Shown: piece by piece, positions 28,648-59,192 of the stretch
Layout of the letters: every line of letters begins with the position of its first letter
How positions within the stretch are numbered: the stretch's first letter is position 1
DNA from: Longimicrobiales bacterium
Lineage (GTDB): Bacteria; Gemmatimonadota; Gemmatimonadetes; Longimicrobiales; Gaopeijiaceae
DNA: 64,000 bases
NCBI GenBank assembly: GCA_965202805.1
Contig: OZ241869.1
Coordinates: 1,888,001 to 1,952,000, forward strand
Direction of reading: 5' to 3'
The notes under the pieces: generated by a model
The model's input: the letters and a program-made list of their open reading frames with translations, nothing else
What the model was told of the DNA's origin: nothing
The model's database searches: none
Program-made: the position numbers and the translations under genes

Positions 28648-29925
28648 ATGAACAACGTCATCCGGGCATCCGTCCAGAGCCGTGGCCTTCCGCGCATCCT
28701 GCGAGGCTCCCTCGTGGTCGCGGCCCTGGCCGCCTGCGACGACCTCGGCCCCCAACCGCCCCTGGGATCTCCCGCGCGCCGTGCCGCGGTGCTCGCCATC
28801 TCCCCCGAGTCGGCGACGCTCTCGTCGCTGGGTGAGACGACCACGTTCAGCGCCGCCCTCACCGACCAGTTCGGGGAGGCGTTCGCGGGCACCGTCGGGT
28901 GGTCGAGCAGCGACCCGGGCGTGTTCACCGTGACCCCCACCGGAGTGGTCAGCGCCGTCGCGAACGGATCGGGTACGGTGACCGCGTCGTTCGAGGCGCT
29001 GAGCGCGACCGCGCAGGTGGTGGTGGCGCAGGCCCCCGCGGCCGTCGTGGTCGTGTCGGGGGGCGGGCAGGAGGGGATGGCGGGCGGCACGCTCGCCGAG
29101 GCGGTGGTGGTGCGGGTGGACGACGGGGGCGGCTCGCCGGTCGAGGGCGCCACCGTGACCTTCTCGGCCGCCGAGGGGCACGGGTCGGCCGACCCCGCCA
29201 CCGCGGCCACCGACGCGGCCGGCCTTGCCCGCACGACCTGGACGCTCGGCAACGCGGCCGGCGCGCAGACCCTCACGGCGGCGGCGGCCGCAGGAGTGTC
29301 GACCGACATCCGCGCGGCCGCGGGCGAGCTCCCCACCCCGCCCGACTCGGCCGCCTACAGCGTCGTCTTCGACGCCACCTGGAGCGCCGCCACCCACCCG
29401 AGGGACTTCCCGCGCAGCGCCCACTTCTCCGCGCTCATCGGGGCGGTGCACAACGACGGCGTCCGCTTCTGGGCAGGCGGCGAGACGGCCAGCGCCGGGA
29501 TCGAGAGCATGGCCGAGACCGGCGGGACCAGCACGCTCAGGTCGGAGATCCGCGCCCGGATCCCCGGCAACGCCCTCTCGGTCATCAGCGGACCCGGCCT
29601 CGGCACCAGCCCGGCCCGCGCGACCCTCTCCCGGTTGGTCGTCCGGGTGGAATACCCCCTCGTCACCCTGGTCACCATGATCGCCCCGAGCCCGGACTGG
29701 TTCGTGGGCGTGTCCGGGCTTTCGCTGATGGACGAGTTCGGGCAGTGGGTGGAGGAGATCGAGTTCACCCTCTACCCGTACGACTCCGGCACCGACGACG
29801 GCACCAGCTACAACTCCGCCAACGCCGACTCCTCCCCCAGACAGCCCATCCACAGCCTCCGCGGCGAAGCCCCCTTCTCGAGCGCGCCCATCGGAACGTT
29901 CACCTTCACGCGCATCGGGAGTTAG
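28648..29925 (+). CDS. lipoprotein with two bacterial Ig-like domains and a C-terminal spondin_N domain
   Basis: LAAC lipobox; WSSSDPGVFTV (Big_2); TDAAGLARTTWTLG (Big_1); ATWSAATHP, HFSALIG, MIAPSPDWFVG, YDSGTDDG (spondin). Confidence 0.88.
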   Translation: MNNVIRASVQSRGLPRILRGSLVVAALAACDDLGPQPPLGSPARRAAVLAISPESATLSSLGETTTFSAALTDQFGEAFAGTVGWSSSDPGVFTVTPTGVVSAVANGSGTVTASFEALSATAQVVVAQAPAAVVVVSGGGQEGMAGGTLAEAVVVRVDDGGGSPVEGATVTFSAAEGHGSADPATAATDAAGLARTTWTLGNAAGAQTLTAAAAAGVSTDIRAAAGELPTPPDSAAYSVVFDATWSAATHPRDFPRSAHFSALIGAVHNDGVRFWAGGETASAGIESMAETGGTSTLRSEIRARIPGNALSVISGPGLGTSPARATLSRLVVRVEYPLVTLVTMIAPSPDWFVGVSGLSLMDEFGQWVEEIEFTLYPYDSGTDDGTSYNSANADSSPRQPIHSLRGEAPFSSAPIGTFTFTRIGS

Positions 29926-30013
29926 CGGGCTCGGGTGCAGATCGGCGCCGTAGCGCGTATTATTTCACCAGTGTGCGCGACAACGCTCCCCCAACTCCGA
30001 CCGACCCACCGGC

Positions 30014-33000
30014 ATGAGCCCGAACGAACGCAATCACGGCGAGCCCGGCGGCCCGATCGCCTACATGGCGAGCAACGGCATTGCGGCCAATCTCCTGATG
30101 ATGGGCATCATCGCCGCCGGACTCGTGTCGCTGACGGGCCTCGACCGGGAAGCCTGGCCTACCACCCCCTTCTACCATATCGAAGTCTCGATGGCCTATC
30201 CCGGTGCCACGCCGGAGGAGATCCAGGAGTCGATCGTCGTCAAGATCGAGAATCAGGTCAGCGGGCTGGATGACGTGAGGGCGGTCAAGTCTGTAGCGGC
30301 CCCAGGCATGGCTTCCGTGCGGGTCCAAATGGATTCCCGTACAGACATGGCTCTGGCCCTGGACGATATCGAGTCTGCCGTCAATCGCATACAGTCCTTC
30401 CCGCTCGGCGCCGAACGTCCCCGGTTCCAGGAGATGGACAACCGCATGAGCATGATGCGGCTCATTGTCCACGGCGACATCTCCGAGCGCTCGCTGAAGG
30501 AGATTGCGTATCAGATCGAAGACGACCTCACCGCGCTGCCCTCCGTCTCCAAGGTCGAGGTCAGCGGCGTCCGGAACTACGAGATCTCCATCGAGGTGCC
30601 GCTTCGCCGCCTGAGAGCCCTCGGACTCACGCTCACCGATATCGCAGGTGCGATTCGACGCAGTTCGCTGGACCTGTCGGCCGGCAGCATCAATACGCGG
30701 GAGTCCCAGGTTCGGGTGCGAACCCTCGGGCAGAACTATAACCAGCAGGATTTCGAGGAGATCGCGGTTCTCAGCAGCCGCGACGGCACGGTCGTGCGCC
30801 TCGGCGATATAGGCAAGGTCCGCGACGGCTTCCAGGAAGCGGACCTGATCGTCCGCCATCAGAACCATCCCGCCCTTTTTGTCGAGGTCTATCGGGCCGG
30901 TGGCGAACATGTGATGGACGTGGCCACGACCGTCCGCGAGCACCTGGCGAACGAGGTGATTCCGGCACTGCCGGACGGCGTGGGCATCACCATTTGGAAC
31001 GACGAATCCCAGGCGTACGAGGAACGCGCCGATATTCTCCTGAAGAACGGTATCCTGGGCCTGTTGCTGGTGCTGATCGCCCTCAGCCTGTTCCTCCAGA
31101 TCCGGCTCGCCCTGTGGGTTGCCGTGGGCCTCGTCGTTTCGGGTATCGGCGCCCTCGCCGTAATGATGGCCTTCGACGTGGCGATCAACACCATCAGCCT
31201 GTTCTCCTTCGTCCTCGCCATAGGGATCGTCGTCGACGACGCCATCATTGTGGCCGAGCACATACAATCCGAACGCAGTCGGGGGGTACCCGGCGTCGCC
31301 GCGGCGATCCGCGGTGTCCGGAGGATCAAGGTACCACTGACGTTCGCAGTGCTCACCTCGGTAGCAGCCTTCGTCCCGCTGCTGTTTATCCCGGGCGGTG
31401 TCGGTGACGTATGGCGGGCCTTGCCGATCATCATGATCGCCATGCTGATGGTTTCCCTGGTGGAATCGCTGCTGGTGCTGCCCAACCACCTGTCGCACCT
31501 GCCCGGCCCGAACTGGGTGCCGGCCAATGCGTTCGACCGATTCTTCTCGCGGCTCCAGAGTCGCGTCGACTCGAGGCTGAGCCGGTTCGTGCAGGGGCCC
31601 CTCGACCGGGCCCTGCGGTACGCCACGGATCGGCCCGGCGTGACGATGTCGGGTGCCGTCGGAATACTCGTGCTGAGCATCGCCCTGCTGCCCGCGGGGA
31701 TCGTTCCCACGACGCTGGCCGACGACGTGGAAGGTGATTTCGTGACGGTCGTTCTGGAGATGCCCGATGGGGCCACCGCTCCAAGAACGTACGAAGTGGC
31801 GCGGGAGCTGGAGGCGGCGGGCCACCGGGTCATCGAACGGCTTTCCAGCGATCGGCCTGCGGATGCGCCACCTCTGCTGACCGGCGTTACGGTGACCGTC
31901 GGACTGGGATCGAGAATGGAGGGCGGACTCAACCCGGAGCCCACTCTCAATCCGCAGCCCAATATCGCCACCATCGAGTTCAAGCTCCTCGGCGCGCAGC
32001 AGAGACGGATCTCCACCGGAGAGGTCGTGCAGGCGTGGCGGGAGGAGGTGGGTGTCCTGCCCTACGTGCGCGGCATCACTTTCAGCGGCGAGATCTTCAC
32101 CCTGGGGAACCCGGTCGAGGCCGTACTGTCTCATCCGGACCCGGAGCGCCTCACACTGATCGCAGACTCGGTAGTAAGCGGACTCCGCAGGGTGGAAGGG
32201 GTATACGACATACGGTCGGATCACGCCCCGGGCATCCCGGAAGTTCAGCTGGCGTTGCGCCCGGAAGCCCGTAGCCTCGGTCTCACCCCGGAAGACCTGG
32301 CGAGACAGACGAGGGCGGCGTTCTTTGGCGCAGAAGCCGTTCGGGTGCAGCGCGGCCGTGAAGAGGTAAGAGTCTACGTGCGCCTGCCCGAGGACGAGCG
32401 GAACTCCATTACCGATATCGAAGGCTACCTGGTCCGCACGCCGGGCGGGGACGAGGTGCCGATCATCAGTGCGGCCTCGCTGGGCCCCGGCTTGTCGCCG
32501 TCGGCCCTCCGGCGCAGGGATGGCCATCGCGTCGTCACCGTCACGGCCGATGTGGACGCTTCGGTGATTTCCGGCGACGAAGCCAACGATATCCTGGCCG
32601 GTTCGATCCTCGCGGATCTGACCGCCGCGTACCCGGGCCTGACATACACGTTCGGGGGTGAGCAGCAGCAGCAACTGGAGTCCATCGACTCGCTCTACCG
32701 TGGGTTCGCGGTCGCGCTGATCATGATTTTTGCGCTCCTCGCCATCCCGCTCCGTTCATATACCAAGCCCTTCATCATCATGGCCGTGATCCCGTTCGGG
32801 TTCATCGGTGTGATCCTGGGCCACTGGATCCTGGGAGTAGCCCTGAGCGCCGTATCCTTCATGGGGATCTTCGGCCTCAGCGGGGTGGTGGTGAACGATT
32901 CCCTGGTGATGATCGACTTCATCGACCAGAAACTCAGGTCGGGGGTCGCGCCGAAGACGGCGATCGTGGAGGGTGCCAAGGGACGCTTCCGTCCGATCAT

Positions 33001-33208
33001 GCTCACTTCCGTGACCACGTTCCTCGGCTTCACGCCCCTGATCCTGGAGCGCGCAATCCAGGCCCAGTTCCTGATTCCCTTTGCGGCGTCGCTCGGTTGC
33101 GGCATTCTCTTTATCACGGCCATTCTCATGATGGTTGTTCCGGCGCTATACACCCTTCATCTGCGTCTGGTGCTTTCGTGGCGTCGATCCGGCGGCGTTG
33201 CCGCGTAG
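30014..33208 (+). CDS. RND efflux transporter permease (AcrB/AcrD/AcrF family)
   Basis: 1064 aa; YPGATPEEI, GIVVDDAIIVAE, GVVVNDSLVM, RFRPIMLTSVTT. Confidence 0.93.
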   Translation: MSPNERNHGEPGGPIAYMASNGIAANLLMMGIIAAGLVSLTGLDREAWPTTPFYHIEVSMAYPGATPEEIQESIVVKIENQVSGLDDVRAVKSVAAPGMASVRVQMDSRTDMALALDDIESAVNRIQSFPLGAERPRFQEMDNRMSMMRLIVHGDISERSLKEIAYQIEDDLTALPSVSKVEVSGVRNYEISIEVPLRRLRALGLTLTDIAGAIRRSSLDLSAGSINTRESQVRVRTLGQNYNQQDFEEIAVLSSRDGTVVRLGDIGKVRDGFQEADLIVRHQNHPALFVEVYRAGGEHVMDVATTVREHLANEVIPALPDGVGITIWNDESQAYEERADILLKNGILGLLLVLIALSLFLQIRLALWVAVGLVVSGIGALAVMMAFDVAINTISLFSFVLAIGIVVDDAIIVAEHIQSERSRGVPGVAAAIRGVRRIKVPLTFAVLTSVAAFVPLLFIPGGVGDVWRALPIIMIAMLMVSLVESLLVLPNHLSHLPGPNWVPANAFDRFFSRLQSRVDSRLSRFVQGPLDRALRYATDRPGVTMSGAVGILVLSIALLPAGIVPTTLADDVEGDFVTVVLEMPDGATAPRTYEVARELEAAGHRVIERLSSDRPADAPPLLTGVTVTVGLGSRMEGGLNPEPTLNPQPNIATIEFKLLGAQQRRISTGEVVQAWREEVGVLPYVRGITFSGEIFTLGNPVEAVLSHPDPERLTLIADSVVSGLRRVEGVYDIRSDHAPGIPEVQLALRPEARSLGLTPEDLARQTRAAFFGAEAVRVQRGREEVRVYVRLPEDERNSITDIEGYLVRTPGGDEVPIISAASLGPGLSPSALRRRDGHRVVTVTADVDASVISGDEANDILAGSILADLTAAYPGLTYTFGGEQQQQLESIDSLYRGFAVALIMIFALLAIPLRSYTKPFIIMAVIPFGFIGVILGHWILGVALSAVSFMGIFGLSGVVVNDSLVMIDFIDQKLRSGVAPKTAIVEGAKGRFRPIMLTSVTTFLGFTPLILERAIQAQFLIPFAASLGCGILFITAILMMVVPALYTLHLRLVLSWRRSGGVAA

Positions 33209-33239
33209 TGCATCCCGGATGCGGGGAGGCGAGAAAACG

Positions 33240-35273
33240 ATGACTGACAAAGCGGAGAGTCCGGGGACTGAACCCCTGAGCCTGGTCGACGAACTCATCC
33301 TGATGCTTCTCGACGACAAGAGCGGTTACTTTCACCAGGTATCCGGCTGGCAACTGAACTGTGCCGTAGTCGGCGGAGTGCTGGCGGAACTCTCCTTCCG
33401 GTCGCGGCTCGACTCGGACCTGGAATCCCTGTTCGTCGTGGACCGGGCCGAAACGGGAGATCCCGTCCTGGACCCCATTCTGAAGGAAGTTGTGGACGAG
33501 CCGGGCCAACACAATGCCCGGTACTGGATCGAACGTCTCGCCCCCCTTGCGGAGTCGGTCATCGAGCTGACTCTGGCGCGCCTGGTTGAACGGGAGATCC
33601 TCCAACACCACGACGGCGATTTCTGGACGCTGGCTCCCACCGTCCTGCATGGGCAACAGGACGGGATGTCTGCCGAAGACGCGTCCAACTCGTTCATCAA
33701 GGTGCGCATCGGCCAGGTTCTCTTCGGCGACGAGATTCCCACCCCGCGGGACATCGTCATCGTATGCCTCGTCAACACGTGCGACCTCTTTCGCACGATT
33801 TTCCAACTCGATGAAAGGGTGGAGGAGCGGATCCAGCACATCTGCCAGATGGACTTGATCGGTCGGTCCATCGCCGATGCGGTCTCTCGGAACCTCGTCG
33901 GCCCGATCCGCAGACGTTCTCCTCTTGCCAGGAGGATTCCGACGGTTCGACTGTCCAGGCTGCTGGGGAACCCGCATGTCCGAGACGGCAACCTGAGCGC
34001 CTTGTTCGGGAATCTCGCGGAGGAGTACGGCCCCGTGTTCCGCATCCGCCCTCCCCTGGCAAAGCCCATGATCTTCCTGGCCGGACTCGAGACGAACCGC
34101 TGGGTGCAGAAGCACGGGCGTGCGTACCTTAGAACGAGGGACTACTTCGGTGACTTCGAGAGAGTGTACGGCGCGGCCGGCGTCCTGCCCGCCCTGGACG
34201 GCGCCGATCACTTCCGGCTTCGCAAGTTCCTGTCGCCGGCCTATTCTCGCGCGAGGCTGGAAGGTCAGGTGGACAAACTCTACGACAAGGGGCGCGCGTA
34301 CATGGCGACCTGGACCGTTGGGGATTCCTACCGCGCCACGTCCTTGTGCCGGGCGCTGATCAACGCCCAGCTTTCGCCGCTGTTCATCGGCGTCGATACG
34401 CAGGATCTCATGGACGACCTGATGGTGTACAAGGAACGCGCCCTCAGCGTGCACATCGCCAGAACCCTGCCCAAATTCACACTGAATACCCCAGGCATGA
34501 AACGCCGGGCGAGAGTCCTGGACACACTGATGCAACGGGTGTTGCAAGCCAATCCGCCCGCCCGCCGGGCCGAGCCCCCGCAGAACCTGGTGGACGACTA
34601 CCTCAGCCTGCACGCGAGCGACCCGCAGTTTCTCCCGGAGTCCAACCTGCTCTTCGCTTTTTCGGCAGCCCTGATTGCCAGCGTGTACCTCGGTGATACG
34701 TTCAGCCTCACGGTCTACGCCATGGCGTCGCAGCCGGATCTTTACGCCAGGATCCAGGCCGAAGCAGATGCCCTGTTCGCCAACGGCGATCCCGAGAAGG
34801 AGGATTTCACCCCCGCCAGCATCGATGTGACGCGCCGCTTCCTAATGGAGTGCGTGCGCATGTACCCGATTGTGCCCATGTCCATTCGGAACGTGATGAA
34901 TACCTGCATGGTCGAGAACCACGAGCTGCCTTTGGGGGAACGGATCCACGTCGCCATGACCGCCACACACTACATGAGCGAGGTCTTTCCCGAACCCCAC
35001 AAGTTCGACATCGACCGCTTCCTGCCGTCGCGCCGTACGCATGACAGCCTCGGGTTCGCTCCGTACGGGCTGGGCACGCACAAGTGCCTTGGCACGCGGT
35101 GGATGGAGATGCACCTGGCGGTCAACCTTCTGATGCTCGCGCACTACTTCAAGATCGAGGTGTCGCCGGCGAAGTACGTGCGGAAGCTCCGATTCAATCC
35201 CTTCCCGTCGATGAAGCCGAGCAAGAAGCTGAGGTTCCGCATCTCGGAGCAGCGACGCGAACTGCCCGCCTGA
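33240..35273 (+). CDS. GPP34/GOLPH3-like domain fused to cytochrome P450
   Basis: N-terminal LSLVDELILMLLDD...GGVLAELSFRSRL...TGDPVLD...LARLVEREIL; ECVR (ExxR), FPEPHKFDIDRF, YGLGTHKCLG heme Cys. Confidence 0.88.
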   Translation: MTDKAESPGTEPLSLVDELILMLLDDKSGYFHQVSGWQLNCAVVGGVLAELSFRSRLDSDLESLFVVDRAETGDPVLDPILKEVVDEPGQHNARYWIERLAPLAESVIELTLARLVEREILQHHDGDFWTLAPTVLHGQQDGMSAEDASNSFIKVRIGQVLFGDEIPTPRDIVIVCLVNTCDLFRTIFQLDERVEERIQHICQMDLIGRSIADAVSRNLVGPIRRRSPLARRIPTVRLSRLLGNPHVRDGNLSALFGNLAEEYGPVFRIRPPLAKPMIFLAGLETNRWVQKHGRAYLRTRDYFGDFERVYGAAGVLPALDGADHFRLRKFLSPAYSRARLEGQVDKLYDKGRAYMATWTVGDSYRATSLCRALINAQLSPLFIGVDTQDLMDDLMVYKERALSVHIARTLPKFTLNTPGMKRRARVLDTLMQRVLQANPPARRAEPPQNLVDDYLSLHASDPQFLPESNLLFAFSAALIASVYLGDTFSLTVYAMASQPDLYARIQAEADALFANGDPEKEDFTPASIDVTRRFLMECVRMYPIVPMSIRNVMNTCMVENHELPLGERIHVAMTATHYMSEVFPEPHKFDIDRFLPSRRTHDSLGFAPYGLGTHKCLGTRWMEMHLAVNLLMLAHYFKIEVSPAKYVRKLRFNPFPSMKPSKKLRFRISEQRRELPA

Positions 35274-35284
35274 GGCGCCACGGA

Positions 35285-36331
35285 ATGCGGCTGGGCGAAC
35301 TGTCGAAAGCGCTGTGGGATGCGTCCCGGGGATCGGGCGTCGCGCGTCGCGTGCGACACTTCGACGGCTGGGTCAACCGGGCGGTGCCGGAGGCCGGAGG
35401 CGCGGGCGGTTACGACCACGCGGAAACGGTCAGGGACTACTACGAGCTTTGCAACGGCTTCATGGTGTGGAGCTGGGGCGAATCCCTGCACTTCGCGCCC
35501 CTTTCGCCCAACGAAAGTCTGGAGGAGTCCAAGGTCCGGCACCAGCGCGCGATGATCTCCAGGTTGGAGCTGGAACAGGGCATGACGGTGGTCGACATTG
35601 GTTGCGGCGTCGGCGGCCCCTTGCGCCGTGTCGTTCGCGAGGCCGGCGTCAGGGTCGTGGGAATCAACATCAATGAGATCCAACTGGCGGAGGCGAAGAG
35701 GTTGAACGCCGAGGCGGGGCTCGATCATCTGGTGGATTTGAAGAGGTGCAGCTTCATGGACATGAGCGCCCTTGAGGACGACACCTTCGACCGGGGCTAC
35801 GCCATGGAGTCAACATGCCATGCGCAGGACAAGCAACGCGCCTTCGCGGAGATACTCCGCGTGCTGAAACCGGGTGCCCTGTTCTGGGGTCAGGAAATGT
35901 GTCTGACGGACCGGTTCGATCCGACGGACGGACGGCACCGGGCTGTCAAGCAGGATCTCATGCGCGGTATTGCGCTGCACGATATCGCCACGTTCGGGGA
36001 AGTGAACCGCGCGCTCGAAGCCGCGGGATTTCAAGTCATCGAGGGAAGGGACTGGAACGTCCAGGAGGGACCCTCCACGCCCTGGTATCAACCAATGGAG
36101 AGTCGCCACGGGACATTGGGGAACGCCCTGCGAAGGCTTCCCTGGGGCCGCAAGGCGATCATCGCGGGATCGAAGCTGGCCGAGGTATTGCGGATTTTTC
36201 CGAATGGTTCGACGGAAGTCGTTCGGCTCCTCGATCGAACCGCGGAGGCGTACGTCGCGGGCGGCAAGACGGGTATCTTCACGCCGCTGTACTGTTTCCT
36301 GGCTCGCAAACCCCCAGACTCGACGGGCTAG
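35285..36331 (+). CDS. sterol C-24 methyltransferase-like (ERG6/SMT family) SAM methyltransferase
   Basis: YYELCNGFMVWSWGESLHFAP, DIGCGVGGPLR, AMESTCHA, ILRVLKPG, GGKTGIFTPLYCFLARKP. Confidence 0.85.
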   Translation: MRLGELSKALWDASRGSGVARRVRHFDGWVNRAVPEAGGAGGYDHAETVRDYYELCNGFMVWSWGESLHFAPLSPNESLEESKVRHQRAMISRLELEQGMTVVDIGCGVGGPLRRVVREAGVRVVGININEIQLAEAKRLNAEAGLDHLVDLKRCSFMDMSALEDDTFDRGYAMESTCHAQDKQRAFAEILRVLKPGALFWGQEMCLTDRFDPTDGRHRAVKQDLMRGIALHDIATFGEVNRALEAAGFQVIEGRDWNVQEGPSTPWYQPMESRHGTLGNALRRLPWGRKAIIAGSKLAEVLRIFPNGSTEVVRLLDRTAEAYVAGGKTGIFTPLYCFLARKPPDSTG

Positions 36332-37424
36332 GTCGCTCGATCCGTTCCTCTTTCCGTGCTCCTTTTCGAGATCGCATCGTCGCCACGCCCAGACTTAATT
36401 CCGGATAGAACTGACGGCAATACAGGCGGTACTTGCCGATCGGGCCGTCGGCCCGGCAGAGACGCGGCGGAGACCGGTAGCGCTTCCGCTCCCAGATGAC
36501 CACGTCCTGCGCCACGAACCGTCTCTCTTCATGCATCACCATGCGGTTCATCAGCCTGTTGCGGAGCTTCCTCGGCAGGAATCCCATGCCCACGATGTAC
36601 CGCCCCGGCTTCCGGACCTCCCGCGCCTGGCTGACCAGGGTCAGCTCGACGAACTCGCCGTCGACGGGGGTCGAGAGGACCCACAGCCTGGAGTCCATGC
36701 CGATCGTCTTCTCGTGGAATTCGACGAACGAGTAACCCAGTCCATGGACATGCGTGACGGTCGACACATCGGAGACGACGTCGATCAGCCCCGCGATGGT
36801 GTGGACGCTCCTGAAGTCGAAGCAGCTCTTCAGGTACGCGCCGTCGATCGAGAAGGCCGTCGGTTCCACGTCGTGGTAGCCGTGCGTGTACTCCAGGTGC
36901 TCCACGTCCACCGAGTTCTCGGTCGTTTCCTGCGGATGGCCCCGGAAGCGCATGGTGGCGAATCGCAGTCCGCTCCAGTCCGCGCCCGCGGGTGGCTCTT
37001 CCGGCAGGCGCCACTGCGGTTCCCGTCCGCCGGCGCCATACCAGGCGAAGACCATGCCGAGGATCTCGGTGGTCTCGTAGAGCTTCAGCTTCGCGGCCCG
37101 GGGCGGCGGGGCGTTGGGCGTGGCGACGCACTGGCCGGTGGTGTCGAAGGTGAAGCCGTGGAAGGGACAGACCAGGCAGCCGTCCCGGATGGTGCCGCCG
37201 GCCGCCGGCCCCAGGTGCGAGCCCAGGTGGGGGCAGAACGCGTCGGCCACGCAGACGCGGCCGTCGTCGTCGCACCAGGCGACGATCTCCTCGCCCATCC
37301 AGGTCTTCTCGATGAGCTTCTCTTTCCGCAGGGTCTCGCGGGTCGCGATGAAGTACCATCCCTCCGGGAACGGAGGAAGTTCATCGAGGCGGCGCGGGAC
37401 CCGGCCATTGCTGTTGCCGATCAT
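36279..37424 (-). CDS. Rieske non-heme iron oxygenase, KshA/Neverland (steroid 9alpha-hydroxylase / cholesterol 7-desaturase)-like
   Basis: FPEGWY, CPHLG...CPFHG Rieske; ENSVDVEHLEYTH iron site; QDVVIWERK...DGPIGKYRLYCRQFY. Confidence 0.85.
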   Translation of the reverse strand: MIGNSNGRVPRRLDELPPFPEGWYFIATRETLRKEKLIEKTWMGEEIVAWCDDDGRVCVADAFCPHLGSHLGPAAGGTIRDGCLVCPFHGFTFDTTGQCVATPNAPPPRAAKLKLYETTEILGMVFAWYGAGGREPQWRLPEEPPAGADWSGLRFATMRFRGHPQETTENSVDVEHLEYTHGYHDVEPTAFSIDGAYLKSCFDFRSVHTIAGLIDVVSDVSTVTHVHGLGYSFVEFHEKTIGMDSRLWVLSTPVDGEFVELTLVSQAREVRKPGRYIVGMGFLPRKLRNRLMNRMVMHEERRFVAQDVVIWERKRYRSPPRLCRADGPIGKYRLYCRQFYPELSLGVATMRSRKGARKEERIERPSPSSLGVCEPGNSTAA

Positions 37425-37762
37425 CTGGCTCCGCCCCGGTGGAGTGGCGAATGGCGGCCGATCAGACTCATGGGACCCCCCGTAAAGGCTCGTGTGACCC
37501 AAGCTAACTGTTGCTGCCTTCGGCTCCTGCGGCCTCCGCAAATGTCGCGCCACGCGCGCAGTTTGGCAAACACCTGCGACATAATGCTGAAATTATGCGA
37601 CGATTTCGTGTGACGGCACCTGATTCATCCGCAAGATGTTGCCCGAACGTCACGCCGCACTCACCGTCATGTGGATGGTGCAGCCGCAACGCTGTGGAAT
37701 GGTGCAGCCGTGACGCCTGTGGAAGCGGCTGGCGGGGCCCAACTGACCGTAGGAGGTGACTC

Positions 37763-39457
37763 ATGTCCGAGATGAATCGACGCACGTTTCTGGGTGCGGG
37801 CGCGGCGGCTGGCGCCCTGGCCGCGTTTGGCGGCTGCACTGCTCCGGGCGGGGAGGCCGGTGCGGATGGTGACGCGAGTGCGGGGAGCGGTGGCGGGGGC
37901 CAGGAGAGCGCCCCGGGCGGCGTGCCGGACTTCGCGCTGGACGAGATCACGATCGATGAGGTCCACGAGGGCATGCGGACGGGCGAGTACACCTGCCGTT
38001 CGATCACGGAGATGTACCTCGATCGCATCGAGGCGCTGAACCGCCAGGGGCCGCGGCTGTTCGCGGTCCTCGAGGTGAACCCGGACGCGCTCGAAATCGC
38101 CGACGCCCTCGACCGCGAGTTCCAGGCCTCGGGGCCGCGGGGTCCGCTGCACGGCATCCCCCTTCTCCTGAAGGACAACATCGATACGGCGGACGGGATG
38201 ACGACGACCGCCGGGTCGACGGCGCTCGCGGGGTCGATCGCGCCGCAAGACGCCTTCGTGGCCGCGCGGTTGCGGGAGGCGGGCGCGCTCCTGCTCGGCA
38301 AGGCCAACATGAGCGAGTGGGCGGGCTGGAAGTCGTTCGAGTTCGGGGCGTCGGGCTGGAGCGGCCGCGGCTGGGACGGCGGACGGGGCGGCTTCTGCAG
38401 GAACCCCTACGCGCTCGACCGCACCCCGGGCGGGTCCAGCTCCGGGTCCGGGTCCGGCGCGTCGGCCAACCTGGCGGTGGCGGCGATCGGCTCCGAGACC
38501 GACGGCTCCATCGTCGGCCCGTCGTCGCGCAACTGCCTGGTCGGCATCAAGCCCACGATCGGGCTGCACAGCCGGGGCGGCGTCATCCCCATCGCCCACA
38601 GCCAGGACAGCACCGGCCCGATGGCGCGCACCGTGCGCGACGCCGCGATCATGCTCGGGACGATGGTCGGCGTCGACCCGCGCGACCCGCTGACCGCCGC
38701 GAGCGCGGGCAACTTCCTGACCGACTACACCGGGGCGCTGGACCCGGCCGGGCTGGGCGGCGCGCGCGTCGGCGTCCTGCGCGAGTACGCCGGCTTCGAC
38801 AGCCGCGTCGACGCCCTCTTCGAGGAGGCGCTCGAGGTCATGCGGGCGGAGGGCGCGACGGTGGTCGACCCCGTGACGCTCCCCGGGGAGCTGCGCTTCG
38901 GCAACGAGTACGAGATGGAGGTGCTGTACCACGAGTTCAAGGCCGACCTGAACGCCTATCTCGCCTCGCTGGGTCCCGACGCGCCGATCAAGTCGCTCGC
39001 CGAACTCATCGAATACAACGAGGCGAACGCCGACCTGGAGCTCGCCCTCTACGGGCAGGAGCTTCATGTGCGCTCCCAGGAGCGGGGGCCGCTGACCGAC
39101 CAGCGCTACATCGACGCGCTCGCCGCGAGCCACCGCCTTTCGCGCGACGAGGGGATCGACCGGGCGATGGACGAGCACCGGCTGGACGCGCTCGTCGGGA
39201 TAAGCTCCGGCATCCCCGCCATGCAGGACCCGCTCGACGCGTCCGGCGGGGGAGGCGGCGGATGCTCGACGCCCCCGGCCATGGCGGCCTATCCCAACAT
39301 GTCGGTGCCCATGGGGTTCATCCACGGGCTCCCGATCGGGATGTCGCTCTGCGGCCGCGCCTGGAGCGAGGCGACGCTGATCCGGCTCGCGTACGCCTTC
39401 GAGCAGGCGACGAACGTGCGGCAGCCGCCGACGTTTCAGGCGACGGTGCGGGTGTGA
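37763..39457 (+). CDS. amidase with Tat signal peptide
   Basis: AGGAGG RBS; NRRTFLG; KDNIDT, GGSSSGSG, GSETDGSI. Confidence 0.92.
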   Translation: MSEMNRRTFLGAGAAAGALAAFGGCTAPGGEAGADGDASAGSGGGGQESAPGGVPDFALDEITIDEVHEGMRTGEYTCRSITEMYLDRIEALNRQGPRLFAVLEVNPDALEIADALDREFQASGPRGPLHGIPLLLKDNIDTADGMTTTAGSTALAGSIAPQDAFVAARLREAGALLLGKANMSEWAGWKSFEFGASGWSGRGWDGGRGGFCRNPYALDRTPGGSSSGSGSGASANLAVAAIGSETDGSIVGPSSRNCLVGIKPTIGLHSRGGVIPIAHSQDSTGPMARTVRDAAIMLGTMVGVDPRDPLTAASAGNFLTDYTGALDPAGLGGARVGVLREYAGFDSRVDALFEEALEVMRAEGATVVDPVTLPGELRFGNEYEMEVLYHEFKADLNAYLASLGPDAPIKSLAELIEYNEANADLELALYGQELHVRSQERGPLTDQRYIDALAASHRLSRDEGIDRAMDEHRLDALVGISSGIPAMQDPLDASGGGGGGCSTPPAMAAYPNMSVPMGFIHGLPIGMSLCGRAWSEATLIRLAYAFEQATNVRQPPTFQATVRV

Positions 39458-48138: not shown

Positions 48139-49041
48139 GTGACCGAGGAAAACGGAGCGTCGGCCGCGCGCGACACGGCCGCCTACTGGGACACGCTGGC
48201 GCCGCATCACTGGCGCCTCGAAGACAACTACCTGAACGTGCCGAGCGTGCGTCTGATCCTGGGCGACATTCGCCCACCCGTCATGGTCGTCGGTTCCGGG
48301 CAGGGGCTGATCGTCGAGGAGCTTCGGCGTCAGGGGCTGCGATGCGACGGCATTGATCTGAGCGCCGAGATGATGGAATACGCCAGGTTGCGCAGAGGCC
48401 TGACGCTGGTTCGCGCGAATGCGACCGCGATACCGTTCGCTGACGGGACCTATGAGACGGTCATCGTTGCAACCGGCGTCATCGACTTCATGGCCGATGT
48501 GCAGCAGATCGAGACGGTCCTGCGCGAAGCGAACCGGATCGTTTCGGGGACGGGCAACGTCTTCGTCGCGTTCTACAGATACAGTGCGGCGCAGCAGCGC
48601 TTCCTGACCTCGCTTGGACTCCTTCGGGATGGCACGTTGCACATCCGGTCGGCAATGGTGCTGAGTCGCCTCGGCTTCGGTGCGCTGGTGGCGTGGGTGG
48701 CGAAGACGGCCGGGATCAGCACGTTCCAGGCCACCCTGTTGTGCATCAGCACGGCCCTCGGATCGACGCAACGGGAGCGCGCAGTAGGTCTCGCGATTCG
48801 GCGGGTGCTCGCTCAGACCGGGGATCCCGACGCCCTCGTCGAAGCAACGCCGGAGACGCAGCCGTACCGCGACAAGGCGGCGGTCGGACGCCTGTTCGAC
48901 AGCCTGTCGATGAGAATCGAGGACTGGCAGTCATCGAGCAGCTGCCATCTGGCGCGGGTGTCGCGGGAGGGAGGGTCACCACCACCGGTTACGGGGAATC
49001 GGCCGGCAGGATGCGATACTGGAAGGACACGCCCAGGCTGA
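48139..49041 (+). CDS. class I SAM-dependent methyltransferase
   Basis: GGAGG RBS, GTG start; VVGSGQG, GIDLSAEMM, ANATAIPFADGTYE. Confidence 0.8.
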   Translation: MTEENGASAARDTAAYWDTLAPHHWRLEDNYLNVPSVRLILGDIRPPVMVVGSGQGLIVEELRRQGLRCDGIDLSAEMMEYARLRRGLTLVRANATAIPFADGTYETVIVATGVIDFMADVQQIETVLREANRIVSGTGNVFVAFYRYSAAQQRFLTSLGLLRDGTLHIRSAMVLSRLGFGALVAWVAKTAGISTFQATLLCISTALGSTQRERAVGLAIRRVLAQTGDPDALVEATPETQPYRDKAAVGRLFDSLSMRIEDWQSSSSCHLARVSREGGSPPPVTGNRPAGCDTGRTRPG

Positions 49042-49158
49042 TACGCGCGGCCGGATCGGCTGATGATCACGCCGGGTCTTGCGGTCGTGCTGCACGTTCC
49101 AGCGAATCATCTGGGCCAGGAATCCCATGGACGCCCAAGCGGGGGTCAGCGGTGGGGA

Positions 49159-49773
49159 CTACAGAATCGAGTCGATCACATCGCGTAGGCTCTCGTATCC
49201 GACTGCACCCCGTCCCGTAGTCCGCTGCACCATCGTCTGTAGCGGCCCCAGGCTGATCGTCTTCTGCTGCGGAACCTCACGGTTCAGAACGGCTGTCGGA
49301 AGCACGTAGAACTGCCATTGGGAAACGTCGAGGGGATCGGGGTTCAGGTCGGTCTTTCGGCCGAGAACGCAGAAGACATAGATCTTCGCTGGGCGACGCG
49401 GCGGATCGAGTCTCCTGTATTCGTTGGTCTCCGGATTCCACAACCGGCGGACTGGAGCGATTCGGAACTGGATAGTCGACGGACGATCCTGCGCCCAGCT
49501 TTGCCGGTAGGCCGCGCTCTTGACCTCGATCTCGTCGCCGTTCTGATTCACGACATCGCAGGAAGCCCACTCGTCGCGGGGTCGTACCACGGCCCTGAGC
49601 GCCGCAGCGACCAAGTACTCGGCCAATACTCCCCTCTGCGTGTTGCTCAGCAGATCCGATGCGGACCACCGCCAGTAGTCAAGCACCGTTGGTCCGATCG
49701 GTTGCCCCTCCGCATGGAATGGCTCGGTTCCAGCCTTCAAGGAGGGACGGGATCTTGGTGAATTGGCAGTCAT
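49159..49773 (-). CDS. PD-(D/E)xK restriction-endonuclease-like protein
   Basis: SDLLSNTQRGVLAEYLVA ... DVV ... IEVKSAAY. Confidence 0.7.
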   Translation of the reverse strand: MTANSPRSRPSLKAGTEPFHAEGQPIGPTVLDYWRWSASDLLSNTQRGVLAEYLVAAALRAVVRPRDEWASCDVVNQNGDEIEVKSAAYRQSWAQDRPSTIQFRIAPVRRLWNPETNEYRRLDPPRRPAKIYVFCVLGRKTDLNPDPLDVSQWQFYVLPTAVLNREVPQQKTISLGPLQTMVQRTTGRGAVGYESLRDVIDSIL

Positions 49774-49825
49774 TGTCCCTGATCCTGGCGTTGAGTGTCG
49801 AGAGTGCGTGTCGCCCGCCCTGATC

Positions 49826-50323
49826 CTACGCTTCGTCACCTTCTACATCGAATACCTCGGAGAGTTGTCGCGCCATCGCGGCCCGCGCTTCTGGATCCGC
49901 TTCTTCCTCGATGAACGAGAGCAGGATCCAGAACATGCGGTCGAACACGGTCAGGACGATTCGGTGGTAGGTGTCGGGTGCCGGTTCGGTATGGATGAAC
50001 CGGATGGCGTGGTCAACGACCAAGCTGATGCCTTCAAGCAGGCTCTCGTCGCTCTCGTCCCTCGTGACCCCGCGCGCCATCGCCGTCCAGCGCTCCAGCC
50101 AATGCTCTACGGTGTCCGACACGGAATAGACGGTCGTTCGTCCACCGCGCTCGATCCAGAACCGCGAGTCGGACCTCAACCAGTTGGGCATCCCGGCTTC
50201 CCCAAGCGCCCGAGAGATTGGGTTCAAGCCGGGGTCCTCCGGCACGAACGGGCTAGCGTCGCCAGAATGCGGATCGATCCAGATTCGGTCCAGGTCGTTG
50301 TCGACCGAGCTGAGTTCGCCCAC
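49826..50323 (-). CDS. hypothetical protein in defence island
   Basis: AGGAGG RBS before GTG; 165 aa acidic, helical; co-oriented with mcrBC. Confidence 0.6.
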   Translation of the reverse strand: MGELSSVDNDLDRIWIDPHSGDASPFVPEDPGLNPISRALGEAGMPNWLRSDSRFWIERGGRTTVYSVSDTVEHWLERWTAMARGVTRDESDESLLEGISLVVDHAIRFIHTEPAPDTYHRIVLTVFDRMFWILLSFIEEEADPEARAAMARQLSEVFDVEGDEA

Positions 50324-50577
50324 GAATCGCCTCCTGCAGCAGTGGTTTCGGTGCGAGACGCGTGTGTACTGAGTCAGCTGCGTTGGAGTCGGAACCTCCA
50401 GTCAAGGAAGGTTCAAAGGCGTTTCGTCTCACGATGAACATGACGCGGAGCATGCCACGAGGCCGCTTCCCGGTCAAGAACCGTGTCAGAATCTCTGTGT
50501 CGGAGGGGTGGATTGGCGGGTTTAGGGTTCGAGGTGGATCAGGTGGAAGGGTGGTGAATGATGGGGGGACAGGACTC

Positions 50578-51660
50578 TCAGTTCAGTGCGTGACTCGATG
50601 ACTCGTCGTCGATGGTGTCGAGCATTTCGCTGTGAATACCTTGCCAATCATCGTTGAGATTGACCGTCCGCGCTTGGATGCGGAAGCTCTCAAGACGGAT
50701 ATCGGCCCTGAGGGGTTCGTCCACCAGCGGGTACAACAGAATGCCTTCGTGCTTTGGCCCCTGGGGCTGTGTGGCCTCCCGGTTTCTCAAGTATGCCAGG
50801 AGCTGGTACAGGTTGGGGGAGTGCAACTTACCGATGTGGGACCCACCCCTGCCTGACACCGGGCTGCTATAGTACTTCGTGTCCAAGATGATTCGGCGTA
50901 AGGGTGACTCCAGGATGACGTCCGCCTCCATGACAGGGATCCTCGATCGATCTGCGGAAGTCGCGCCGCTACTGCCTGCCCACGCGATCCGACGCCCCCC
51001 GCGGTTCACGCGATAGACATTCTGTTCGCGGCGATAGAATCCAGTTACAAAGTCCTCGAAGAGACGCCACATCTGAGCCTCATCACGCCGAAAATCAACG
51101 AACCGGACGTGACCGGTCTTTTCGTCCACGACTTGGCTCTCGTACAGGAGCTTGCAAACAGAGAGCAGGAACTGGTAGAGCCGCCGGTTTCCGCCAAGCT
51201 GGAGCCGACCAAAGGTATTTCGGTCGAGTGGAACGCGGGACACCCCATCCATCCTAGTGTGCGCCGACCGTACCTCCTTCCGGATCTGATTGTCCAGCCC
51301 AGTCTTGCCGGAGAGCAACCTACGCAGCGATGTACGGAGGATGCGATTCGACAAGATGTCCACCGAGAGCTCTTCGAAATCGCAGGCCGCTCGGCCTCTG
51401 GCCCGCAGCGCACGCTTGGCCATCTCGCTGATCGCCAGCTTGCCGCGAATCCCCGCGAGATCCTCCCGCCTCTCGACGTAACCTCGATCAATGCCACGCC
51501 GCAGAAGGTGGTTGACCCCGCCGGCAAGTACCTTTCCCAAGAGGTCTTGTGGAGCCGACAGGTGGCTGAGCGCGGATAGGCGCGCGACATCACAGTCTTG
51601 AGCGCGTCCCCACGCATAGCAGAGGAGGTAGTAGACGTTGAGGATCGGGATGTTCTTCAA
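50578..51660 (-). CDS. mcrC: McrC-like restriction nuclease subunit
   Basis: IPILNVYYLLCYAW, LFEDFV, ADVIL...ILDTKYY, NLYQLLAYL; 4-nt overlap with mcrB. Confidence 0.9.
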   Translation of the reverse strand: MKNIPILNVYYLLCYAWGRAQDCDVARLSALSHLSAPQDLLGKVLAGGVNHLLRRGIDRGYVERREDLAGIRGKLAISEMAKRALRARGRAACDFEELSVDILSNRILRTSLRRLLSGKTGLDNQIRKEVRSAHTRMDGVSRVPLDRNTFGRLQLGGNRRLYQFLLSVCKLLYESQVVDEKTGHVRFVDFRRDEAQMWRLFEDFVTGFYRREQNVYRVNRGGRRIAWAGSSGATSADRSRIPVMEADVILESPLRRIILDTKYYSSPVSGRGGSHIGKLHSPNLYQLLAYLRNREATQPQGPKHEGILLYPLVDEPLRADIRLESFRIQARTVNLNDDWQGIHSEMLDTIDDESSSHALN

Positions 51661-52883
51661 GGCTGACCGTTGCCGTTGAGCGCCGCTACGGCCTTCTCGA
51701 CATCGTCGGGCGAATCGAACCAGTACTCCCGGAGAAGCGGTTCGATTTGGGTATCGACGATGTGAGTGTACCGGGCTTCCGAAATGCCCTCTCCATCGTC
51801 GGGAACGAAATAGCTGTGCCCGATCTCGAAGCCGGGACCGAGTTCGGGGTCTTCTTCGATCTTCCGGTTCAGCGCGCCCATGCGTTCAACGATGCGGCTG
51901 ACGAGGGTCGGTTCGGTTCCTTTCGACTCCAGGTATCGTTTGAACTCTGGCCGGCTGTATCCCGGTTCCAGCGTCTCAAACGCAAAGCGCCGGCGAAGCG
52001 CATAGTCCACTAGGGCTAGCGACCTGTCGGCAGTGTTCATCATTCCCAGGATGTGAACGTTCTCCGGAACGTGGAACCATCTGTCGGAATAGGTGAGGGA
52101 AACGGCGAACTTGTCGCTACGTTTGTCCGCTTCGATCAGCATGAGGAGTTCGCCGAAGATGCGCGAGAGATTGCCCCGGTTGATCTCGTCGATGATGAAG
52201 ACATGCGGTGTTCCCGGGTCGTCCAGCGCGCGCTGGCAGAAGCGGTAGAAGACGCCATCCTTGAGGTCAAAGCCGCCGTCGTCCGTGGGTCGGTACCCCT
52301 GGACAAAGTCCTCGTATGCATAGGACTGGTGGAACTGTACCATCCCGATGGGATCAGAGTTCTTGTACCCAATCAGACACCACGCGAGTCGGCGGGCGAT
52401 GAACGTCTTACCTGTCCCTGGCGGTCCCTGAAGGATGAGGTTTTTGCGCGTTCGGATTGACTCGAGGAGACGCTCGAAGCGGTCACGAGGGAGGAAAAGG
52501 TCCTCGTGGGCATCATCGATCGTGTAGGGTTCCAGCGCGCCGACGCGGCGTAGTATAGCGTCAGCTGCACGACGAAGCTTGCCTCGGTCGATCCTCGCGA
52601 ACTCGTCCCAGATTTCCTTGTCCAGCTTGCCGCCCTGACTCAGGCCTCGTCCCTCATATTCCGGATCGAAGGGCAGGAAGTTGCCGAGCTTCATCGCGAC
52701 TCCGTTAGGATTCCGGAGGTATCCCTCCTTGTCGTGCGAGGGATGAACGGGGAATCCGTTTAGCAGAGCGCTGAGCTTCTTGACTCCGGGGTGGGTCTTG
52801 CTACCACGGGCACGTGGCTCACGGAAGTACAAATCCAGCGCCAGAATCAATTCGTCACGACACCAGTTCGGGCTTTTCGGCAT
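51657..52883 (-). CDS. mcrB: McrB-like AAA+ GTPase with atypical N-terminal domain
   Basis: GPPGTGKT, QFHQSYAYEDFVQG, IIDEINRG, MNTADRS, DYALRRRF, IGHSYF, PLLREYWFD. Confidence 0.92.
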   Translation of the reverse strand: MPKSPNWCRDELILALDLYFREPRARGSKTHPGVKKLSALLNGFPVHPSHDKEGYLRNPNGVAMKLGNFLPFDPEYEGRGLSQGGKLDKEIWDEFARIDRGKLRRAADAILRRVGALEPYTIDDAHEDLFLPRDRFERLLESIRTRKNLILQGPPGTGKTFIARRLAWCLIGYKNSDPIGMVQFHQSYAYEDFVQGYRPTDDGGFDLKDGVFYRFCQRALDDPGTPHVFIIDEINRGNLSRIFGELLMLIEADKRSDKFAVSLTYSDRWFHVPENVHILGMMNTADRSLALVDYALRRRFAFETLEPGYSRPEFKRYLESKGTEPTLVSRIVERMGALNRKIEEDPELGPGFEIGHSYFVPDDGEGISEARYTHIVDTQIEPLLREYWFDSPDDVEKAVAALNGNGQP

Positions 52884-53665
52884 TTGCGACGAGCCTCCAT
52901 CCTATCGGGTCTTGGACCGCAACGGCGGTCTCCTTCTACGTGTTGAGCGATAGGCCCATCTCCCGAATATTAATCGTTTTTTGCGTTGTAAACCATACGG
53001 TTAGTTGCCTCCGCTTGCCGGTGACTCTCGAAGTCCGGACACTGCGTCAGTGTCGAGTTCACCCGCCCTGCGGGGTGCGCTTCCCCGGTAGGGTGAAACG
53101 CTGGCGACTAGGACGAGATGGCCCGGCGAGCGAGAACAACCCACATCAGCCGTCTTCTTCGCAGGACGGCGACAAAACACCTTCGCCCAACAGACGCAAA
53201 CAACCACATGCGTCCGATCCGCGATCAGCGAAAGCGCCCCACCAAACCATCGGCCACAGAGGCACAACCGCGCCGCAGCCCCTGACCTCGGCTATTACGG
53301 GTGTCGGATGTTGTCGCGTAGCCACGACATCGTCGCCACCTCGCCGAGGCAAGATTCCGCGAATGGGATATGCCGACGGACCGCCAGACCGGCCGTTCCT
53401 CCCCGGCTGCCTTGGTCGTCTCCGACGGCGCTGCCGTTCACCCGCGACATCACCCTCCAACTCCCCATACCGCAGCCGGGCGTCCCTTGGATGGATGCCC
53501 CGGCGACCACCGCACGCCGTCCACAGATTGCCTCTTCGGTCCCGCGCGGCTCCATCGCATTAGTTGCCGAGGTCACGCTGCCTCGGAGGGCACGCTGTAT
53601 TCGATCATCATGAGTCGCTCAACTCGACGCATCTATTTCATTGAGCACATCATTAGGCGATCTCG

Positions 53666-55900: not shown

Positions 55901-55908
55901 GGGTCTTG

Positions 55909-57438: not shown

Positions 57439-57457
57439 TTTCTATTCCGTGTCGTGA

Positions 57458-58987: not shown

Positions 58988-59192
58988 ATGTTTACGTTAG
59001 CCGATGCTGATGGCGTGAGCAAGGCTGAGTACACCGCTCTGTGTGGGCGAAAGGACCTAACGCTACCCACGCTTACCGTCGAGAAGTAACGCGGCTTGAT
59101 CTTCTCTCGTGAAGCGGGTGCCACCGCCATCGGAAGCGGGTTGAGGCGTGCGGCATGCATGCCGCCCATCGGCCTCCCCGGCAAGGATGGCC

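Follow-up and report, generated by a model that had tools for sequence, protein, structure and literature searches.

A divergent sterol methyltransferase-family gene in a probable steroid-tailoring cassette of a sponge-associated Longimicrobiales bacterium

Does an SMT-family gene in a Longimicrobiales genome encode a sterol 24-C-methyltransferase, or an enzyme that methylates something else? The original prediction was a eukaryote-type sterol 24-C-methyltransferase in a bacterium, with a divergent specificity or number of methylation rounds. SMT-family genes in bacteria are already in print, and Brown 2023 (PMC10070321) bears out the statement that active SMTs have been reported from bacteria. 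The question for this locus is its substrate. The window, the whole stretch of 64,000 nucleotides that was analysed, holds densely packed bacterial genes, among them the following features.

30014..33208, plus strand: AcrB-family RND transporter, 1064 aa (Pfam); 31 nt separate its stop from the P450 fusion
33240..35273, plus strand: GPP34 (GOLPH3-like)-cytochrome P450 fusion, 677 aa (Pfam); 11 nt separate its stop from the start of the SMT
35285..36331, plus strand: divergent SMT-family SAM-dependent methyltransferase, 348 aa, here P0001 (frame, Pfam, residues, tree, AlphaFold2)
35459..35494, plus strand: region I, FMVWSWGESLHF, P0001 residues 59-70, yeast F80-F91 (translation, alignment)
35594..35620, plus strand: SAM-binding region II, D104-P112, yeast D125-P133, intact (translation, alignment)
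36131..36313, plus strand: Sterol_MT_C domain (PF08498), P0001 residues 283-343 (Pfam)
36279..37424, minus strand: Rieske [2Fe-2S] + KshA_C oxygenase, 381 aa (Pfam); convergent, overlapping the SMT 3' end by 53 nt

Domains, clade and altered residues of the methyltransferase

The P0001 frame runs from an ATG at 35285 to a TAG at 36331, with a single terminal stop. A longer GTG frame from 35084 was rejected: it overlaps the P450 gene, and the 35285 start is favoured because close homologues align from residue 1. Pfam placed Methyltransf_11 at residues 103-200 (E 1.9e-17, above its cut-off), and Sterol_MT_C scored 57.5 bits where 21.7 is the cut-off (E 1.5e-15). The recognizable SMT regions described originally were thus confirmed, including the C-terminal tail GGKTGIFTPLYCFLARKP (residues 326-343, 36260-36313), with both motifs where they had been placed; the lack of a Sterol_MT_C hit was one part of the refutation named for the prediction, and the hit is there. 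The region II pattern DXGXGXXGP is complete (D104, G106, G108, G111, P112), and the residues equivalent to yeast E195 and G217 are E175 and G197. P0001 shares 31% identity with a named fungal Erg6 (P0280, Cladosporium) over 329 columns (E 2e-58), and it groups among SMTs. Its AlphaFold2 model, from an 81-row alignment, has a pLDDT of 91 and a pTM of 0.90, and its Foldseek matches are class I SAM methyltransferases. No SMT structure is among the listed Foldseek matches, and the PDB sequence and fold searches returned no true SMT structure; PDB 6f5z, labelled '24-sterol C-methyltransferase', was set aside, as it matches the P0001 core only (E 1e-8). P0001 is an intact SMT-family methyltransferase, predicted to bind SAM. 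No NCBIfam family exceeded its cut-off for the SMT, P450, Rieske or RND proteins, and a promoter and terminator scan gave no signals above shuffled sequence.

To place P0001, the best 80 of at least 556 related GTDB stretches were analysed. Locus counts and the Mantel test given below are not independent, because these carriers were picked by likeness to the query and are mutually related. A quick IQ-TREE run used 116 rows, all SMT-family: 27 of the 80 loci, 7 canonical paralogues, P0001 and full-length representatives, with partial rows excluded. The tree was midpoint-rooted, carries SH-aLRT support only and has no outgroup, and therefore shows a clade but not its root. P0001 falls in a clade of 32 rows (SH-aLRT 100) with a stem of 0.74 changes per column, placed among bacterial symbiont SMTs with weak support (87). 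The phylogeny that had been proposed as a check thus puts P0001 in a long-stemmed clade beside bacterial symbiont SMTs. The label 'eukaryote-type' goes too far, since the nearest relatives are these symbiont SMTs, the deep nodes of the tree being weak. A protein search with P0001 listed 120 matches that share 76-92% identity and whose sources are named as Gemmatimonadota, Nitrospira and Gammaproteobacteria. One listed homologue (P0087, 477 aa) carries both SMT and KshA_C Pfam domains, as a fusion or an assembly read-through.

Residues were compared in yeast numbering, carried over through a fungal proxy (P0200) whose 90% cluster holds the Cladosporium Erg6 and which matches all 25 anchor residues published by Brown & Welander. 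According to their preprint (bioRxiv 10.64898/2025.12.19.695621), all functional SMTs share 25 residues, 14 of which are kept by every tested SMT. P0001 keeps 22 of the 25 and departs at T78N, G84S and F89L, so that it lacks the full set shared by functional C-24 SMTs (Brown & Welander 2025). S84 and L89 break the region I motif 84GWGXXFHF91. Within region I, M81, V82, W83, S84 and L89 are off the functional consensus, while W85, G86, H90 and F91 are kept. Relative to canonical SMTs, P0001 shows T78N, D79G, Y81M, E82V, G84S, F89L, Y153I, Y223Q, W225M and I249.

Most of these changes belong to the clade. Among the best 80 of at least 556 GTDB stretches, Y81M, F89L, Y223Q and W225M occur in 80/80 loci, I249 in 79/80 and E82V in 75/80; the first four are found in only 1-3 of 108-114 other SMT rows, and F89L in none of the 7 canonical SMTs from the same loci as clade genes. 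L89 together with M81 was present in all 70 metagenome rows covering region I. The positions changed are conserved and mostly aromatic, and M81/L89/Q223/M225 offers a simple marker set that separates the P0001 clade from other SMTs. G84S was dropped as a clade trait, since 5 of the 80 loci have S84 and 72 keep G; the preprint text mentions no S84-bearing SMT as assayed. H90, D125, G129, P133 and E195, cited in the preprint as essential in yeast, are kept in 80/80 loci.

The preprint credits region I aromatics with carbocation stabilisation and finds residues 81 and 249, by docking, close to the side chain; the pocket-lining role of the changed residues rests on that docking for these two positions only. 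It also reports that a G249I mutant of Chl_SMT makes C28 sterols only. The published propylating (24-isopropyl) signature is G249 with F81 and/or F83, and P0001 has I229 (=249), M60 (=81) and W62 (=83). Met81, Leu89 and Ile249 suggest a site shaped differently, with at most one methylation. The proposed change in the number of methylation rounds was therefore abandoned as regards extra rounds, given I249, M81 and W83, while divergent specificity is judged likely from the fixed residue changes. P0001 is probably not a canonical C-24 SMT: the family and the sponge-associated bacterial source of the original prediction stand, and its C-24 label is probably wrong (22/25 residues, F81/F83 absent, I249).

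Cassette and host genome

The genes around P0001 suggest a context in steroid oxidation. The GPP34-P450 fusion has its heme-Cys region and ExxR motif, and its best PDB sequence match is CYP51, a weak one (E 4e-18). The oxygenase downstream has its Rieske and non-heme iron ligands, and its best PDB match, again weak, is KshA (E 4e-21); its affinity may be to KshA or to Neverland/DAF-36. These matches leave the substrates of both enzymes unfixed. Beside the cassette RND gene, no MFP or OMF gene was found in this genome; an OMF-MFP-RND set lies elsewhere (L090, G000:C1:73785-76477), with 56% identity to cassette MFP/OMF proteins.

Counted within 8 kb of the SMT in the 80 loci (the best of at least 556), the partners are GPP34 in 73, P450 in 72, Rieske in 69 and RND in 49; these counts, at E 1e-5, include some paralogues or partial matches, and short contigs are among the loci. 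A flavoprotein of the amine-oxidase family is near the SMT in 40 of these 80 loci, and two MMPL families with sterol-sensing-domain matches occur in 9 loci each. Among 76 JGI metagenome loci, retrieved with the Nitrospirales orthologue L050 as query, the 34 loci of at least 11 kb have P450 in 19, Rieske in 16 and RND in 6, and these lower counts indicate that the linkage loosens with distance. SMT divergence covaries with that of the partners (Mantel rho 0.42 for P450, 0.64 for Rieske and 0.57 for RND, against a shuffled maximum of about 0.2), a correlation to which shared host ancestry contributes. The order of the cassette is shuffled between loci, and the Rieske gene lies on the strand opposite to the SMT.

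The cassette block has a GC content of 0.637 against 0.684 for the genome, a value as low being reached by 4.5% of 536 windows of 7.5 kb. Its GC3 is 0.79-0.86, compared with 0.92-0.95 in four flanking genes, and two other nearby genes are also low (0.81 and 0.86). In the Longimicrobiales relatives L009 and L010 the cassette has the same spondin-domain and amidase genes on its two sides as in the window (28648-39457); there the RND, P450 and SMT genes are inverted and partly swapped for paralogues (RND 71%; L010 GPP34-P450 41-42%), a pattern that suggests repeated exchange at one site. The flanking gene at 28648-29925 encodes a predicted lipoprotein with bacterial Ig-like domains and Spondin_N, a eukaryote-like domain. 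A second probable island lies at about 49000-59000 of the window (GC 0.55-0.61 against 0.68 for the genome).

The host genome is a single contig of 4.02 Mb, 98% complete, and carries one SMT. Searches of this 98%-complete genome found no squalene/oxidosqualene cyclase C-domain (PF13243) and no squalene epoxidase (PF08491), and only a sub-threshold fragment of ERG4/ERG24 (PF01222). Of the genes of a de novo bacterial sterol cluster (OSC, squalene epoxidase and ERG24), none was thus found over cut-off in cluster or genome, and de novo synthesis was dropped as an explanation; by its gene content the host appears unable to build sterols. In 'sponge metagenome' sequencing runs from 2 studies, 67-88% of sampled cassette words were present, rows with a small share being left out; no RNA run was among those listed.

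Other loci of the host genome are of related kinds. A relative of the cassette flavoprotein (L089:6889-8505, G000:C1:462897-464288) shares 75% identity with the copy in L050. The genome also has a second GPP34 gene, short and unfused (L091:6704-7567, G000:C1:1060751-1061350), with 42% identity to the fused domain. On the minus strand of L092:4546-13792 (G000:C1, about 268.5-277.8 kb), a same-strand run holds three P450s, an MpaB/Lcp-type oxygenase, a sulfotransferase, a PAPS-reductase-domain gene and a CysN/APS-kinase gene; its gene content suggests a cluster that makes a sulfated, oxidised metabolite and supplies its own PAPS.

Spread across phyla and previously assayed orthologues

A phylum was named for 69 of the 80 loci (the best of at least 556), 11 phyla in total, mostly from sponge-associated MAGs. 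In a search of 5 genomes, RecA of the host shares 97% identity with its counterpart in a Longimicrobiales (Gemmatimonadota) MAG, and 69-72% with the RecA of one Rhodothermales, one Bryobacterales and one Nitrospirales MAG. The SMT is 92% identical to a Rhodothermales gene (dS 0.13; RecA 71%) and 88% to a Bryobacterales gene (dS 0.23; RecA 69%). High SMT identity combined with low RecA identity points to recent transfer of the gene between phyla. Among 60 relatives, 10 have a clade-type SMT (66-92%), 9 of these being among the 18 same-genus genomes; in four same-genus genomes that are 96-100% complete no SMT match was found. None of the 10 relatives with a clade-type SMT has a cyclase match.

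A full-length cyclase C-domain was found in 23 of the 80 carrier genomes (9 OSC-like, 14 SHC-like only) and in none of the other 57, a figure for 'no cyclase found' that is inflated by incompleteness, the carriers being MAGs of unstated completeness. The OSC-like cyclases score 184-196 bits, mostly in long frames, with the SMO-OSC gene of L093 as the reference that defines the class. The clade gene adjoins a full sterol pathway in 2 Nitrospirales loci and in L094/L095. A canonical SMT stands beside it in 7 of the 80 loci (the best of at least 556), and this co-occurrence suggests a different job for the clade gene. Canonical paralogues with G249 lie near the clade gene at L058:1896-2912, L061:1425-2318, L094/L095:4115-5143 and L096:2-631; with F81 in addition, those of L058, L094/L095 and L096 carry the signature published for candidate 24-isopropylating enzymes, and that of L061 has Y81/Y83.

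Two clade members could be matched to genes tested in Brown 2023 (PMC10070321), using contig size, gene order and residue number. In that paper, both 'Nitrospira sp., coral reef' SMTs are on a 70,077-bp contig, with IMG ids ending ...279 for SMO-OSC, 278 for CYP51, 277 for ERG24, 276 for sdmA, 275 for sdmB, 274 for SMT1 and 270 for SMT2. L050 is a 70,077-bp Nitrospirales contig whose gene order agrees with the ids ...279 to ...270, a flavoprotein, a porin and a KshA-type Rieske gene lying between SMT1 and SMT2. On these published details, we identify L050:8001-9035 as the 'Nitrospira sp., coral reef 2 of 2' SMT (IMG 2682229270). Its product is 77% identical to P0001 over 343 aa without gaps. 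It carries T78S, F89L, D189N and L341M. Each of these changes falls within the 11 positions that some tested SMTs lack, so that the protein cannot belong to the functional set as the preprint gives it; most likely it had no activity on desmosterol or 24-methylenecholesterol. Such inactivity fits the 2 of 14 environmental SMTs reported inactive in PMC10070321. The lysate assay also showed no activity for four SMTs that keep every conserved residue, and a negative lysate assay may for that reason reflect expression.

The second match is indirect, since L095 comes from another assembly (Ga0209021_1000731) than Brown's. Its clade gene (L095:6001-7035) is 78% identical to P0001, has L89 and lies two genes from a canonical SMT; that SMT has its position-249 glycine at residue 225, in agreement with what is published for Ap_sym_SMT. 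The order OSC, SMT1, one gene (a Rieske fragment) and SMT2 fits Brown's gene numbers 12, 11, 10 and 9, and L095:6001-7035 is probably the 'Aplysina aerophoba JGIcombinedJ30088_10000835 2 of 2' SMT.

P0001 might still be an ordinary single-methyl C-24 SMT that needs another nucleus (4-methyl, Δ7 or stanol) or is poorly expressed in E. coli. It keeps 22 of the 25 functional residues, including all five cited as essential, its Sterol_MT_C domain is above cut-off, and the authors of bioRxiv 10.64898/2025.12.19.695621 allow inactive SMTs other substrates. We consider this fairly unlikely: F89L and Y81M are fixed throughout the clade, a canonical SMT is already present in 7/80 loci, and the gene is linked to oxygenases and not to OSC.

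The probable inactivity of the assayed orthologue L050 would also suit a paralogue in decay, or a protein that binds sterol or SAM without catalysis. Measured against the window gene, dN/dS has a median of 0.21 and a maximum of 0.415 (57 of the 80 loci being comparable without gaps), and the P0001 clade is under purifying selection. An intact frame, a dN/dS of about 0.2, and a SAM motif, H90 and E195 invariant in 80/80 loci make loss of catalysis highly improbable.

Candidate substrates and comparison with known systems

We hypothesize, at about even chances, that P0001 methylates a scavenged, probably oxidised steroid rather than a Δ24 bond, and that the product is exported. The sponge, or a nearby symbiont that makes sterols, would supply the sterol, and the Rieske oxygenase and P450 would oxidise it. 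The methyltransferase would then add one methyl at a different double bond, or at a new hydroxyl or carboxyl group; a different site is proposed because the aromatics thought to stabilise the C-24 cation are replaced. The RND pump would export the product, with MMPL-type transporters in this role in some other lineages. A steroid substrate is inferred because the partners resemble steroid oxygenases, the alternative transporters match sterol-sensing domains and the Nitrospirales cassette abuts a sterol pathway. Against the oxidised state, the sterol pathways of the Nitrospirales and L094/L095 loci fit a sterol, though not necessarily an oxidised one.

The substrate might instead be a non-steroid lipid or isoprenoid, for example a small natural product, a linear terpene or the double bond of a fatty-acyl chain. 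Among solved structures, the nearest are natural-product O-, N- and C-methyltransferases (MitM, RebM, AtmM and TleD), and MitM and RebM have L at the region I position equivalent to 89. Botryococcus TMTs, which descend from SMTs, methylate squalene and botryococcene, and OSC was not found in 71 of the 80 carrier genomes. We rate this possibility unlikely, as those structures are only about 20-26% identical and the PDB matches include no competing SMT, while the Rieske partner has a KshA_C domain, the alternative transporters have sterol-sensing-domain matches, and the cassette adjoins complete sterol clusters in Nitrospirales.

Another sterol reaction to weigh is C-26 (Δ25) methylation, in which P0001 would extend codisterol-type sterols to precursors of aplysterol and 26-methylstigmastane. 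Brown 2023 (PMC10070321) describes the C-26 enzymes as undiscovered and (epi)codisterol as their would-be substrate, and assayed each SMT on desmosterol and 24-methylenecholesterol only. If the C-26 role is true, it would have been missed because members were assayed on Δ24 substrates only. The L050 clade gene lies four genes from 'Nitrospira 1 of 2', the source of the codisterol spectrum, and clade genes occur in metagenome records with prefixes that Brown assigns to A. aerophoba and P. ficiformis. The major sterols of these two sponges are aplysterol and petrosterol. Clade genes are, on the other hand, also found in records assigned to Sarcotragus foetidus, in MAGs whose names refer to Ircinia or Rhopaloeides as host and on the Nitrospira contig from the coral reef, and OSC was not found in most carriers. 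The P450, Rieske oxygenase and exporter would be unneeded for such chemistry, and loss of the aromatics would be hard to square with a carbocation reaction; we think a C-26 role quite unlikely. No report of a C-26 SMT was found in the openly searchable literature. Were the C-26 role true, the enzyme would be carried by symbionts of 11 phyla, and those lacking a cyclase would remodel sponge sterols into 26-methyl skeletons, which are used as evidence for the earliest animals, and the GPP34-P450, Rieske oxygenase and pump would form a symbiont-to-host sterol-editing module.

SMT genes of sponge symbionts are being read as 24-alkyl sterol capacity, a reading that bears on the sponge biomarker debate. 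A large share of these genes may belong to the P0001 clade (at least 556 GTDB stretches), probably with another function. The cassette provides a likely metabolic setting for the sponge-specific GPP34-P450 fusion, and points to a few enzymes and substrates (Δ25 and oxidised sterols) for asking which organisms make unusual sponge steroids, the C-26 question included. A paper describing the P0001 clade or its cassette was not found in the openly searchable literature. Beside the sponge SMTs in print, the clade is probably an orphan, widely exchanged paralogue in a probable steroid-tailoring cassette.

Comparison of P0001 with canonical SMTs (Erg6, plant SMT1/SMT2, Chl_SMT and Ap_sym_SMT) shows the same domain architecture, SAM motif, H90, E195 and W286, and the same C-terminal G352/F357/P359; unlike them, P0001 belongs to a separate long-stemmed clade that is not tied to OSC. 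Among the closest published counterparts is 'Nitrospira 2 of 2' (L050), a member of the same clade with M81/L89/Q223/M225/I249 and GPP34-P450 and Rieske-KshA_C neighbours. That gene, unlike P0001, has retained G84 and borders a complete sterol cluster that includes a canonical SMT, whereas P0001 has S84, an RND pump in its cassette and a host genome in which no cyclase was found.

The ERG24-CYP51-LSS clusters of Ircinia symbionts (PMC9531527) share with P0001 the sponge-symbiont setting and horizontal spread, and SMT1/ERG6 homologues are reported as enriched in those symbionts. That operon serves de novo synthesis; the window, by contrast, holds none of its three core genes, and the P0001 cassette is mostly without an OSC match. 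The upstream gene has the GPP34 + P450 architecture of the GPP34_L proteins of sponge symbionts, an architecture reported only from such symbionts in that study (Microbiome 2025, PMC11706023). The words 'sterol' and 'methyltransferase' occur 0 times in its main text, and the link to an SMT is absent there. For GPP34_L that study proposes phagosome modulation, unlike the steroid reading given here.
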